Notes: generated by a model from the sequence alone, not told the origin. A stretch of 64,000 bases of DNA from Balneolaceae bacterium (GCA_050117475.1 JASFMR010000004.1:274-64273); one strand, 5' to 3'. Shown: positions 35,819 through 47,471, counted from the first letter of the stretch. Numbers and translations: made by a program.

Positions 35819-36916
35819 CTATTCCTCTTCTCCCGCATTTCCGGAATCTCCCTCCCTCTCTTGGTTGTTATTTTTAGCACTCCCCAACATTAATCCATAA
35901 GGCTTTAATGGCTCTAGGGTATCAAAAATGGCCTTGATCACTCCAATCATAGGTAAAAAAAGCACCATTCCCGATATTCCCCAAATGCTTGAACCTGCAA
36001 AAATGGCAATCAAGGCTGCCAGGGGATTCACCTTCACCCTGGTCCCGACCAAAAACGGAGTGATGAAATTATTTTCCAAAAACTGGATAAACCATAAGGA
36101 AACCAAAAGGGACAACGGGTAAAATAAGGAAGACGTAGTTGCCAAGGCATATAAAAAAACAACCAACGAGCTAATTATTACGCCGATGTAGGGAACCAAG
36201 TTGAATATGGCAAGCAATACCGCAAAGAAAAATGCATAACGGATCCCCAAGATAATTAGCACAATATAAAATAATGCACCAATGATTACGGTAACAAGCA
36301 GCATTCCAGATAAGTATTGCTGGACAATGCTGTTTATTTCTCCCAAAAGAGATGATGCCTGTTTTTGATATTTTTGTTCAATACGAAGGAATGCATCAAA
36401 AAATAAATCCCGATAATAGAGCATGAAATAAACATACAAGGGAATAACGGTAATTAATGTTATCGCCTGGAAAATGGTAAAGAGTGCATTTCTTATCTGT
36501 AAAAGAGAGGCGTTGATCATGCCTGAGATAGAAGTGGCAATCTGTCGTGAAAACATTTCATGCGTCACCCCCCACCGGGTCTCTGTATATTTTTGCAAAT
36601 ATTCTCCCCACTGATCCAGTCTCCGGGTTAATGACGGGACATCTTCCAGGATTCCCACCACCTGAACGGAGAGCAGATAGAATATAAATCCAAGCAAAAA
36701 TATTGCTAAAATTAAAACCATGATGATAGCTACCGGGCGAGGCACTTTCTTTTGTTCAAACCACTGAACCACGGGTAGTATTAACAGGGCTATCAATAGC
36801 GACCATGCCAATGGGAGTAGTATTGCCTGGGCCATCACCAAAGAATAGATCGTGAGCACTGCAATCAATAAAACCGCAGCAAAACCGGTGATATTTGTAT
36901 AATCGGTGCGTATCAT
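35819..36916 (-). CDS. AI-2E (PerM) family transporter
   Basis: Multi-TM; FNLVPYIG, IQFLENNFITP, WGISGMVLFLP; ATGA overlap with atpG. Confidence 0.9.
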   Translation of the reverse strand: MIRTDYTNITGFAAVLLIAVLTIYSLVMAQAILLPLAWSLLIALLILPVVQWFEQKKVPRPVAIIMVLILAIFLLGFIFYLLSVQVVGILEDVPSLTRRLDQWGEYLQKYTETRWGVTHEMFSRQIATSISGMINASLLQIRNALFTIFQAITLITVIPLYVYFMLYYRDLFFDAFLRIEQKYQKQASSLLGEINSIVQQYLSGMLLVTVIIGALFYIVLIILGIRYAFFFAVLLAIFNLVPYIGVIISSLVVFLYALATTSSLFYPLSLLVSLWFIQFLENNFITPFLVGTRVKVNPLAALIAIFAGSSIWGISGMVLFLPMIGVIKAIFDTLEPLKPYGLMLGSAKNNNQEREGDSGNAGEEE

Positions 36917-37815
36917 TTTATGCCCTCATCCTTTCTCAATACTTCATAGCTCCCTATAATATCCAGGATTTCTTCCGTGATATTAATCTGGCGCTGGCTG
37001 TGGTATCTTTTTTTGAGGTCGACCAGTTTCTCTTCAATTTTCTTTTCAGCTACCTGCATCGCCGCCAACCGGCTATTATTTTCCGCAGAGAGGGATTCGG
37101 AAAATGCTTTATATATCGAAACAAAAAGCAATTGTTTTATAAGTGCCGGGAAAAGCCTTTCTACGGCCATGGTATATTTTGGCAGGGTGTGACTATCCCA
37201 CGTCTTATTGGCCAACGTGCTCAGCCAATTGGTATCGACTGGAAGAAGCTGTTGCTGAAACGGAGAATACTGTGAATTGGATATCGGATGGTTGTAAAAT
37301 AAATAAATCCGTTGAAACCCCTCATCAGAATACCACTGCTGAATATTCACAACCAGCGACTGTACGGTTTCATTAATAGCCTCTATTGTACTTGGTACCT
37401 CAAATTGATGGTTGACCTTCCATCCAATGCGTTCCAGACCCGGCATAATGCGATTGCCAATTGCAACAACTTTTTCGGGATCACGCAAGTAGTCTTCGTA
37501 CCAATGGTTTTTTACATAGTTTGTCAATACCTCATTAAAACTCCCACACATCGGCTGGCCAGAACCAAACACCAAGACTACCCTTTTTATTGGATCCTTT
37601 GTCTTGGGAGGCTGCAAGAGTGCACTCACATTCGGCTGTCTTTTTAACATAATGCGGAGCCCCTGTTCTATGGTTTCGAAATAGCCTGTTATCGATTCCA
37701 CTGCATCCTCGTACTGACTAATACTGACTGCCGCCAGTACTTTCATTGTTTTAACTATCGAATGTAAGTCTTTGGCAGACTTTAATTTACGTTCAACAAC
37801 ATCAATCCTCTGCAT
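36913..37815 (-). CDS. atpG: N-ATPase gamma subunit
   Basis: [41 protein letters not shown]. Confidence 0.93.
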
Positions 37816-39343
37816 AATCCTTAACGTTTGTCGGCTCGAGTGCTTGTTTAATGATCTCAGTCATTCGATCCCGTTCGGCCTCTGTTAATGCATCACCGTG
37901 TTCAATTTTTTTGGCGACATCTCTGAGCTCTTTTTTAGTTAATTCGGAAATAACTTTTTTTGCTATGGGTATGCGGCTAATCTCAATATCATCCATGAAT
38001 CCGTTAGTTACCGCAACTAACTCCAGAATCTGCTGTGTAACGGAATGCGGATTAAATTGCTTCTGTTTTAGCATCTCTCTGATCCGTCGCCCTCGTTCAA
38101 TAATTTTCTTGGTTTCCACATCCAATCGAGCACCAAAACGAACAAAGGCTTCCAATTCCTGGAACTGGGTATAGGAAAGGCGCAAATCCTTGGTGACATA
38201 CCTGTAATAGGGAAGCTGTGCAGCCCCTCCCACCCGTGATACAGATATTCCCACATCAACAGCGGGTAAAATATCTTTTTGGAATAGATCCGGTGACAGA
38301 TAAACCTGGCCATCAGTAATTGAAATCAGATTGGTAGGAATAAATGCGGCAATATTTTGGCCTTCGGTCTCAATAATTGGTAAGGCAGTTAGAGAACCAC
38401 CCCCAAACTCCGGCTTAAGGTGTGTAGCTCGTTCCAGCAGCCGGGCGTGAATGTAAAAAATATCCCCGGGATAAGCTTCCCGCCCTGGAGGACGGCGCAT
38501 AAGTAAAGCCAGTTCCCGGTAAGCTCGTGCATGCCAGGTAAGATCATCATAAACTATAAGAACATCGCGCCCCTGTTCCATAAAATATTCCCCAATGCTT
38601 GTGGCGGCATAGGGCGCAATGAATTGAATTCCGGCGGGAGTATTTCCTGTGGCAGAAACAATTATGGTATGTTCCAAAGCTTCATATTGTCTCAGGTCGC
38701 TGACAATCTTTGACATTTCAGCATTCTCTTTCCCAATTCCGCAGTAGATACATATAACACCCGTATTGCGCTGATTAATAATCGTATCCAGTGCGATAGC
38801 CGTTTTTCCTGTTTGACGATCTCCAAAGATTAACTCACGCTGTCCCCGGCCAATTGGTATCAGGGCATCAATCGTTTTTATCCCCGTTTGCAGTGGGACT
38901 TCAACCGGGGCCCGTTGCATAATTGATGGAGCAGGCCGCTCGATGGGATAATGAATTTTACTATGAATTGCCCCTTTGTCATCGAGCGGACGTCCCAGCG
39001 GATCGATGATCCGCCCCAGCATAATTTCCCCCACCGGAACATCCAGGACTCTTCCCGAACGTGACGCTTCATCCCCGGCCTTGATCTTTTTTGAATCGTC
39101 GAGCAAGATTACCCCCACTGATTCTGGATCCAGGTTATAAGCCATACCCGCTATATTATTCGGAAAATAAACCAGCTCTTCTGCCCCAACTTTTGGCAAC
39201 CCATCAACAATAGCAATCCCTTCGCCTACCGATAACACCGTTCCAGTCTCTGCCATGTGCAAATGGTCTTTCCGGGTCGAAACAAGCCGGCCAAGGCCAT
39301 CCAGGGTATCGGGAATAACATGATATAAAATGGATTTTGACAT
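37802..39343 (-). CDS. atpA: N-ATPase alpha subunit
   Basis: [30 protein letters not shown]. Confidence 0.96.
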
Positions 39344-39352
39344 AGTGCACCT

Positions 39353-45653: not shown

Positions 45654-45660
45654 GGCCGCC

Positions 45661-46059
45661 TCATTTTTTTTGCAATTCGACAAAACGCCGAATAAAATCA
45701 GCCTCCAATTGCTCTAAGGCTATTTGAGTATCCTTTTCCTTTTGATTCAGCACCCTGAACTTTTCCTTGATAACCAACTCCAGTTCCTCGAGATTTTTCC
45801 CTCGGATGGCATGCCGTACTGATACCATAACCTGGTCATCTTTTTTAACTAAAATACCGCTATTTACAGCCCAAAGCTGTTCTTCACCGTCTGTCCAGTA
45901 GCTCAATATCCCGGGTACCAATTCTGCCAGGAAATCAACATGCCTCGGTTTTAAACAGAAGGAGCCATTCCTGGCTTCAGCTACAATTTTTTCCACACTT
46001 TTCGACACCACTTTTTTTTCGGGTGTCATAATATTTAGTTTCATCATATTCCAGCTCAT
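45661..46059 (-). CDS. atpC: N-ATPase epsilon subunit
   Basis: [23 protein letters not shown]; ATGA overlap with atpD. Confidence 0.9.
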
Positions 46060-47471
46060 CCGTATTGCTCCGCAACTTCATTAATAGAACCAATCATATA
46101 AAAGGCCTGCTCGGGTGCATGAGGAAATGCATCATTTAAAATCGCTTCACAACCGTCCAGAGCAGCATTGAGGTCTACCATTACCCCTTCCTTGCCGGTA
46201 AACTGTTCTGTTACGGAAAAAGGCTGTGTGAGAAAGCGCTCCAGCCGCCGGGCACGCCTTACCAGAAGCTGATCTTCGGGCGATAGCTCTTCCAATCCCA
46301 GCATAGATATGATATCTTTCAACTCCTCATAATAAGCAAGCGTCTGCTTAACCTGCTGGGCTATTTCATAATGGCGGTCCCCCACAATATCATATGACAA
46401 CATCTTTGAACCTGATTCAAGCAGGTCGATAGCCGGATAAAAGCCATGGCTCGAACGTTCCCGGGATAACACAATAAATGATGACAGATGAGCAAACGTA
46501 TGTACTACAGCGGGGTCCGTAAAATCATCCGCGGGCACATATACAGCCTGGACAGAGGTGATAGCCCCGTTCCTGGTACTACTTATCCGCTCTTCCAGTT
46601 CAGCTAGCTCAGAACCCAGTGTTGGCTGATAGCCCATTCTCGATGTAACCTTGCCCATAAGTCCTGACACTTCAGAGCCCGCCTGTACAAATCGAAAGAT
46701 ATTGTCGATGAGCAACAGTATATCCCGCCGTTCGGTATCCCTAAAATACTCAGCCATAGTCAGGGCCGAATGACCAACACGAAAACGAGCCCCGGGAGCT
46801 TCGTTCATCTGTCCGAAAACCATGAGGGTATGGTCAAGAACGCCGGCCTCTTTAATTTCGCGATATAATTCTTCAGCCTCACGACAACGCTCCCCTATGC
46901 CGCAAAAGATGCTTAGTCCCTGGTAAGCAGCCACTATATTCCGGATTAACTCCATAATCAATACAGTTTTACCAACTCCCGCCCCACCGAAAAGCCCGGC
47001 TTTTCCTCCTCTCTCTACTGGGGCAAGTACATCAATAGCCTTAATACCGGTATGAAGGATCTCATTTCCGGTCACATGATCGGATAACGGAACAATATTC
47101 CGGTGTATGGACCTTCTTGGCTGTCCCGTAAGTGGGGGTTTGAAATCAATAGTCTCGCCAAATACATTTAGCATACGCCCCAGGAAAACTTCTCCCACCG
47201 GAACCGTCAATGGTTCTTGGGTGTCCCGCACTTTCTGTCCCCTTGCGATACCTTGCGTTGGGTTCAAAGCCAAGCAACGAACCGTTTGCCCATCAAGGTG
47301 GGATACTACTTCCAGGATCACCGGTTTTGATGGACCATCATCCTGTTTAAGCTCGAGAACCAGCTTACTGTCAATTTCCGGCAGCTGATGAGCGAAGAAA
47401 GCATCTATAACACTCCCCCTGACCCGGATAATACTACCAATATTTGTACGACCGCCGTTGGTTGTAACCAT
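46056..47471 (-). CDS. atpD: N-ATPase beta subunit
   Basis: [41 protein letters not shown]. Confidence 0.96.

Follow-up and report, generated by a model that had tools for sequence, protein, structure and literature searches.

A cation antiporter and a SERCA-like P-type ATPase embedded in an N-ATPase operon of Fodinibius

An N-ATPase operon carrying two additional transporter genes

N-ATPase operons consist of nine genes whose order, atpDCQRBEFAG, has been stressed as strict (Dibrova, Galperin and Mulkidjanian 2010, PMC2881411). Here we describe an N-ATPase operon of a Balneolaceae bacterium (GCA_050117475.1, JASFMR010000004.1:274-64273) in which the genes for a cation:proton antiporter and a P-type ATPase stand between atpR and atpB. 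The stretch of DNA that was analysed, hereafter the window, is 64,000 nucleotides long and belongs to a draft genome of 145 contigs. The interruption is real and conserved, a variant of a barely described kind of operon. In our reading the two inserted genes, which we call the cassette, were probably captured once as a pair and kept by selection.

Twelve open reading frames (ORFs) of the minus strand, all in the same direction, fill 35819-47471. Their Pfam and NCBIfam matches give, with the gene upstream, the order ppsA-atpD-C-Q-R-[NapA-like CPA2 antiporter]-[SERCA-like P2A ATPase]-atpB-E-F-A-G-AI-2E:

47505-49916, minus strand: ppsA, phosphoenolpyruvate (PEP) synthase (PF01326/PF00391/PF02896), 33 bp upstream of atpD
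46056-47471, minus strand: atpD, N-ATPase beta subunit (PF00006, PF02874)
45661-46059, minus strand: atpC, epsilon subunit (PF02823)
45345-45683, minus strand: atpQ, AtpI-like (PF09527; TIGR02230, 137 bits)
45034-45348, minus strand: atpR (PF12966, 72 bits; TIGR03165, 72 bits against a cut-off of 55.5)
44986-45033, minus strand: 48-bp spacer between atpR and the antiporter gene, with AAGGAGG 8 nt before the antiporter ATG as read from the sequence
43807-44985, minus strand: NapA-like CPA2 cation:proton antiporter, 392 aa (PF00999, full length)
41276-43810, minus strand: P2A-type (SERCA/LMCA1-like) P-type ATPase, 844 aa (five Pfam domains)
41173-41275, minus strand: AT-rich 103-bp spacer between the pump gene and atpB, with a conserved block at about 41199-41263
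40468-41172, minus strand: atpB, a subunit (PF00119)
40146-40424, minus strand: atpE, c subunit (TIGR03322, 154 bits against a cut-off of 131)
39353-40144, minus strand: atpF, b subunit with a delta(OSCP)-like C-terminus (PF00430 and PF00213)
37802-39343, minus strand: atpA, alpha subunit (PF00006, PF00306)
36913-37815, minus strand: atpG, gamma subunit (PF00231)
35819-36916, minus strand: AI-2E/UPF0118 family transporter (PF01594, 184 bits, residues 14-334)
35750-35768, minus strand: terminator-like hairpin after AI-2E from a pattern scan, the likely end of the transcription unit

The nine ATPase genes, each with a near full-length family match, keep their relative order; they are not contiguous, two foreign genes lying at atpR/atpB. 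The likely start of atpQ is the ATG at 45653 (102 aa), the start also called for this gene in L069, a second assembly from the species. The reading frame of the P-type gene is open from 43846, and its ATG at 43810, the start that fits the family N-terminus, overlaps the antiporter stop in an ATGA (43807-43810); atpG and the AI-2E gene overlap by 4 bp. A first-pass annotation of the window had already reported this gene order, with nine intact N-ATPase genes, the 48-bp and 103-bp spacers and the ATGA overlap, and all of it holds in the ORFs, family matches and sequence. It had also noted the absence of insertion sequence (IS) elements and flanking direct repeats; our search for IS elements and for direct or inverted repeats flanking the insert came up equally empty.

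The operon is recognizably of the N-ATPase type. AtpE, AtpQ and AtpR score above the cut-offs of the NCBIfam 'alternate F1Fo' models, and both atpQ (PF09527/TIGR02230) and atpR (PF12966/TIGR03165) are present. Like the N-ATPase operons of PMC2881411, it comprises nine genes including atpQ and atpR, is a second copy beside a canonical F-ATPase (atpB-E-A-G on contig C24, atpD on C25), and encodes a b subunit with a delta-like end and a c subunit with a helix-1 Glu and ESTxxY; unlike theirs, its order is broken by two transporter genes at atpR/atpB. The c subunit reads GEGRA...VESTAIY (E30; E63-S64-T65..Y68), a Na+-type ligand set, whereas the canonical c subunit of the same genome is without the Na+ motif. 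Three further statements of the first-pass annotation, namely the E...ESTxxY set, the normal order atpDCQRBEFAG and the existence of an H+-coupled N-ATPase c-ring, find their counterparts in these residues, in PMC2881411 and in the c17 ring of the Burkholderia pseudomallei N-ATPase, which binds H+ (E61-T62-M63..Y66; Schulz et al. 2017, PMC5376962). The window's c subunit resembles that of Burkholderia in operon type and in having two carboxylates but differs in its E-S-T..Y (Na+) pattern, as opposed to E-T-M..Y (H+).

We assign the host to Fodinibius (Balneolaceae), a halophile genus; the c subunits of its same-genus relatives include those of the named species Fodinibius salicampi, roseus, salsisoli, saliphilus and sediminis. 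Members of the genus are moderate halophiles with a salt-out strategy that grow at 3-25% NaCl (PMC9909488). That the junctions are the product of a chimeric assembly, a possibility raised by the first-pass annotation itself, has next to no probability at the assembly level. L069 (Logan SRR11711953), an independent 20-kb assembly from the same species, is collinear with window positions 50985-37807, both junctions included, with 2 mismatches in 13,179 gap-free bases (99.985% identity), and a JGI contig (L070) and a Logan contig (L071) span atpR-antiporter-pump at 99.8%. The same junctions also recur in assemblies of other species, and relics of the cassette lie at the same site in the nearest species representative, as described below.

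Antiporter and pump

PF00999 matches the antiporter over residues 13-374 of 392, and the protein has no RCK/KTN domain. Its best solved relative is Thermus NapA (4bwz/5bz2, E-value 5e-16, residues 2-382), to which it aligns at full length (NapA residues 10-378), with ATLDDILE opposite NapA D156/D157 and GFAKMLG opposite NapA K305. The corresponding residues D155, D156 and K307 are invariant in 20 homologues, and this Asp-Asp pair in transmembrane helix 5 (TM5) and Lys in TM10 mark the protein as a putative electrogenic CPA2 antiporter. It is thus like Thermus thermophilus NapA, an electrogenic Na+/H+ CPA2 antiporter, in length, full-length alignment and conserved D156-D157 and K305, but the match is weak at this E-value, and the score of 111 bits is below the TIGR00932 cut-off of 238.

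The pump has all P-type catalytic motifs (TGES157, PEGL260, DKTGT303, KGAPE419, TGDN, GDGVND587), and its best solved relative is Listeria LMCA1 (E-value 5e-147; PDB 6zhf and others), with SPCA and SERCA also among the best. Between 117 and 119 of 119 homologues retain each of the residues E261, N654, E657, N684, T687, D688 and E763. Among these, the ligands of membrane helices M5 and M6 align residue for residue with SERCA2 N768, E771, N796, T799 and D800, and the M4 Glu (E261, SERCA E309) was placed by way of the PEGLP motif and the LMCA1 alignment; all six M4-M6 ligands are the same as in SERCA and are conserved in no fewer than 118 of the 119. E763 in M8 (117/119) aligns with LMCA1 R795 and, in a weak alignment to SERCA2, falls about one helical turn off E908. 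Since the pump keeps the SERCA Ca2+ ligands, Ca2+ export is likelier than Na+ export, and we regard the protein as probably a SERCA-like Ca2+/H+ pump. Catalytic motifs are shared with both LMCA1 and SERCA; unlike LMCA1, the pump keeps the M5 Glu and has a Glu in place of Arg795, features with which it may bind two ions as SERCA does.

The first-pass annotation had placed the pump in a co-expressed ion-extrusion unit with the rotary pump and the antiporter; for the P-type pump, the SERCA-type ligands do not favour extrusion of Na+. If the pump were a Na+ (or K+) ATPase, all three machines would extrude Na+, which would suit the halophilic host and the pairing of the pump with a Na+/H+-type antiporter in every context. 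The NCBIfam scores also leave room for it in that the pump stays under the SERCA and PMR1 cut-offs (616 against 703 and 624 against 798); the PMCA cut-off is the only one of these that it passes (525 against 507). The match of six near-invariant M4-M6 ligands to SERCA2 argues the other way, as do the best solved relatives, all of which are Ca2+ pumps; Na,K-ATPases, moreover, have Asp rather than Asn at the SERCA N796 position. We consider a Na+ or K+ pump unlikely.

Distribution, probable capture and exchange of the cassette

AtpR was found in 14 of 81 relatives. ppsA-atpDCQRBEFAG is present whole or in part in all of 13 related loci, none of which has the two-gene cassette; one of them, G071 (L018), has a different antiporter at atpQ/atpR. 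The window's antiporter occurs in the window genome alone among 283 species representatives of the order, and 19 of 20 further N-ATPase operons sampled across the phylum are uninterrupted. A GTDB scan with the antiporter protein returned only a match from an unrelated Desulfobacteraceae (47% identity). The synteny search that the first-pass annotation had proposed did find the same interruption in other species, all of them represented by metagenome assemblies, so that the cassette is now seen inside N-ATPase operons of at least eight lineages, including the window. It lies at atpR/atpB, as in the window, in L031/L032/L041 (proteins 81-85% identical), L036/L039 (80%) and L042, and at atpQ/atpR in L037, L038, L047 and the contig of P0125. 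The reported interruption at atpR/atpB is therefore genuine but not the sole site, half of the cassette lineages using atpQ/atpR. The L038 contig ends after the pump gene (10277-10421) in a perfect 10-nt inverted repeat (TGTGTCATCC...GGATGACACA), possibly the border of a repeat or of a mobile element where atpR is expected.

Elsewhere the two genes form a free-standing tight pair with no ATP synthase genes nearby (L033; L035, Fulvivirga sp. 29W222; L048). In L043 (1091-3629) the free-standing cassette pump gene is read in two frames (matches of 361 and 486 aa), by a frameshift or a sequencing error. In L072 (= L044, 5795-12544, GCA_003359175.1), an unrelated genome without an N-ATPase, ppsA (53% identity) adjoins an antiporter-pump pair whose antiporter is broken and encloses a piece of a P-type N-terminus.

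Another type of antiporter occupies atpQ/atpR in G071 (408 aa) and in G215 (L068); the G215 protein is 49% identical to that of G071 and 24% identical to the window's. These single-antiporter operons are like the window's in that a NapA-like CPA2 antiporter with the DD motif lies in the accessory-gene region, tightly coupled to its neighbours. They differ in that the window's antiporter belongs to another subfamily (24%), brings a P-type ATPase and lies after atpR. On L068 (49-5300), a Balneolaceae contig, atpD is also preceded, at a distance of 342 bp, by the gene for a P2-type ATPase with 35% identity to the cassette pump; this is a second, independent pump-antiporter-N-ATPase linkage. Our literature searches found no published account of the window's arrangement and no published explanation for transporter genes inside N-ATPase operons. 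What appears to be new is the two-gene cassette with its SERCA-like pump, its descent from genes that stood alone as a pair, the use of a second position, the exchange of atpR together with the cargo, and a loss that left relics behind.

The antiporter and the pump give parallel match lists, led by Fulvivirga (73%), with other Cytophagales at about 60% and DPANN archaea at 50-58%; the archaea have homologues of both genes, several apparently on one contig. In the pump tree, a phylogeny of the kind that the first-pass annotation had suggested for the inserted genes, the embedded copies form one clade (Shimodaira-Hasegawa-like approximate likelihood ratio test, SH-aLRT, 100), sister to the free-standing Fulvivirga clade and split into an 'after atpR' and a 'before atpR' group. 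A single embedded clade is consistent with the pair having entered an N-ATPase operon once. A free-standing pair of the Cytophagales type would have been captured once and then inherited vertically in the window's clade, with the atpR/atpB position in the window's subclade and the atpQ/atpR position in more basal lineages.

A concatenated tree of AtpD, AtpA, AtpB and AtpG groups the window, G019 (L026), L031, L036 and L038 in a well-supported clade and places L037 and L047 elsewhere. Forcing the cassette-bearing operons to be monophyletic in this host ATPase tree was rejected (approximately unbiased, AU, test, p = 0.0008). A comparison of the L047 and G071 operons, which have 90% nucleotide identity outside a swapped block, locates the difference: the match breaks off about 15 nt short of the atpQ stop codon and is restored 4 nt ahead of the atpB ATG. 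Between these breakpoints G071 has its 408-aa antiporter and its own atpR, and L047 has the antiporter-pump cassette and a different atpR, the two atpR alleles being only 42-45% identical. As the break takes in cargo and atpR alike, the two were exchanged between operons as one block, and such a [cargo + atpR] block has moved between diverged N-ATPase operons with the end of atpQ and the start of atpB as its bounds. An AtpR tree resolved no joint travel of cassette-linked atpR alleles, AtpR being too short and too diverged.

The cassette has also been lost, a point not in the first-pass annotation. G019, the nearest GTDB species representative, has no cassette but a 365-bp gap between atpR and atpB, in which collinear relics can be recognized: the antiporter start (19/21), antiporter nucleotides of about 90-131 (36/43, E-value 5e-6) and the spacer block (53/68, E-value 2e-10). 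Because G019 is nested in the cassette-bearing clade, the absence is due to a secondary deletion.

Where it persists, the cassette looks maintained. The cassette genes and the downstream atpBEFAG have low nonsynonymous divergence (dN, 0.04-0.25) at saturated synonymous divergence (dS). Against L031/L036 the cassette genes have a dN of 0.10-0.13, again with saturated dS, which is not above atpD and atpA, and dN/dS is 0.02-0.04 for atpB, atpE and atpA where dS is computable. By these measures strong purifying selection acts on both the cassette and atpBEFAG, which makes the insertion a non-disruptive one; five intact atpBEFAG genes over such divergence also suggest that these genes are expressed rather than silenced by a polar insertion. 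The first-pass annotation had judged the insertion non-disruptive, and the recurrence of the cassette in at least eight lineages together with these divergences bears it out. It had further proposed a check of codon usage, by which the inserted genes are native: their codon usage is that of the genome as a whole, and so is their GC content at third codon positions (GC3, 0.46 against a genome mean of 0.455).

Transcription and proposed function

The neighbourhood of the operon holds further P-type ATPase genes and two other ORFs:

33100-35697, minus strand: P3A (plasma-membrane H+-ATPase type) P-type ATPase (TIGR01647, 896 bits against a cut-off of 615.5)
32562-32888: 108-aa DUF5335 protein, a conserved one that also follows the P3A pump in L026 and L036
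23826-32465, minus strand: 2879-aa ORF between two P-type ATPase groups
19754-22444: P2A-like P-type ATPase
17088-19661: MgtA-type P-type ATPase (TIGR01524, 754 bits)

The AI-2E gene is kept at the same place in the gene maps of L026, L031 and L036. The P3A gene, which the first-pass annotation had not mentioned, follows it after 121 bp and is a conserved neighbour in L026 and L036; it is unusual for a bacterial P3A pump to be conserved beside an N-ATPase operon. Counting the cassette pump, 27 kb of the window (17088-43810) hold four P-type ATPases of different classes. On the other side, ppsA adjoins the N-ATPase operon in 11 of the 13 related loci and likewise in L058, L061 and L067, and it stands directly upstream of atpD across Balneolales (L017-L029) and in two more distant members of the phylum. 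In the stretch that begins with ppsA (window 47505-53463), SDR and HSP20 genes precede ppsA in the window and L031, and HSP20 only in L036; a PAS-HisKA_3 kinase and a NarL-type regulator precede it in all three. The whole co-oriented array, with ppsA, kinase and regulator, may be one stress regulon.

The 103-bp spacer bears on whether the array is one transcription unit. It contains a block of about 50 nt (GATTTAGCTAATAT...AAAAATGAGTACnTTGATnATATAA) that is conserved in L031, L036, L041 and the L026 relic and absent from free-standing cassettes and from lineages with the cassette at atpQ/atpR. A genome-wide search for it as a repeated regulatory site found the block to be unique. It has no Rfam match, and the spacer has no conserved RNA fold, its single-sequence fold being slightly better than that of shuffles (z = -2.45). 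Na+ or Li+ riboswitches and other known RNA elements were sought across 32000-51500 with E-values up to 5, and none was found. Scans for sigma-70 promoters and terminators gave no more matches than shuffled sequence, a k-mer survey of upstream regions for a house promoter gave only a weak TATATTT-like signal with no match in the spacer, and the spacer yielded no relic of atpR or of the 3' flank of the free-standing cassette. The block is a candidate internal promoter or operator for atpBEFAG.

Such a promoter would divide the array into two units, atpDCQR-CPA-P2A and atpBEFAG-AI-2E, co-regulated at most. The phylogenetic pattern of the block speaks for this division, conserved as it is with the cassette at atpR/atpB and missing with the cassette at atpQ/atpR or free-standing, and the lack of a conserved fold or Rfam match fits a DNA-level signal. 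Set against this, no sigma-70 consensus match exceeds chance, the Bacteroidota-type TAnnTTTG motif is one base off, and no conserved terminator follows the P-type gene (a hairpin over its stop codon is not conserved). In addition, the atpR-atpB junction stays tight and canonical where the cassette is at atpQ/atpR, so that read-through from the cassette is simplest in those lineages. Two units are quite possible, though we lean towards one.

The reading that we favour, at a probability of about 0.7, is that a composite operon, real and kept by selection in a halophilic Fodinibius, arose by a single capture and that atpD to AI-2E serves as a single unit against salt and alkaline stress. All genes from atpD, or perhaps already from ppsA, through AI-2E would be expressed together. 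The N-ATPase would hydrolyse ATP to expel Na+, making the inside negative, and the membrane potential would drive the electrogenic antiporter to export Na+ while taking in more H+, combining Na+ extrusion with proton retention. The P2A pump would expel Ca2+ in exchange for H+. Further cation/H+ traffic would come from the P3A H+ pump downstream and from the AI-2E protein, to whose family belongs a transporter proven to exchange Na+(Li+) for H+ (PMC7221264). On balance the cell would spend ATP to extrude cations while retaining its protons, an advantage where salt and pH are high.

Several points weigh against this reading. The cassette has gone from G019 and is absent throughout 12 other relatives, so the N-ATPase can do without it. 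The ion specificities are predicted from motifs, and NapA-like antiporters can carry K+ or Li+; SERCA ligands in P2A pumps, likewise, do not prove Ca2+ pumping. The conserved spacer block may be a separate promoter, and co-transcription and read-through into atpB are what we infer. Finally, an N-ATPase with a large c-ring might be unable to pump against the sodium gradient of a halophile. A related thought reverses the machine: the antiporter would turn the respiratory proton gradient into a sodium gradient, from which the N-ATPase would make ATP at high salt and pH. The only solved N-type c-ring has 17 subunits (PMC5376962), and a ring of this size, with its low gradient per ion, would in our view favour synthesis at a large sodium motive force; yet N-ATPases invariably occur beside a normal F-ATPase and are taken to be exporters (PMC2881411), and we hold the reverse direction to be very unlikely.

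The cassette might, alternatively, be a tolerated passenger in an atpQ-atpB interval that is merely permissive, with no functional link between rotary pump and cargo. It does stand alone elsewhere, it was lost in G019, and of the other 33 N-ATPase operons mapped across the phylum, 31 have nothing inserted. Against mere tolerance, G071 and G215 have a CPA2 antiporter of another type in this interval, every cargo is a cation transporter, and the cassette has stayed embedded through saturation of synonymous sites, all of which make a passenger improbable. We float, tentatively, the converse: the atpQ-atpB stretch may be a dedicated, exchangeable cargo slot in which close relatives swap [cation transporter(s) + atpR] through recombination, and in which a cation/H+ exchanger is always present, accompanied in this case by a Ca2+-type pump.

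N-ATPases, widespread as second rotary ATPases, have a physiological role that is still argued (export of Na+ or of H+). In halophiles that expel Na+, the locus described here amounts to a natural experiment, the same cassette being found free-standing, embedded at two positions, exchanged and freshly deleted, and it singles out atpR as part of the exchanged block. If the cargo slot were true, it would mean that a rotary Na+ pump depends on a partner for recycling charge and protons, and AtpQ and AtpR would be candidates for matching pump to partner, perhaps in one membrane complex. More generally, the locus predicts a functional partnership between a rotary pump, an electrogenic antiporter and a Ca2+-type pump, and it offers matched gene sets.

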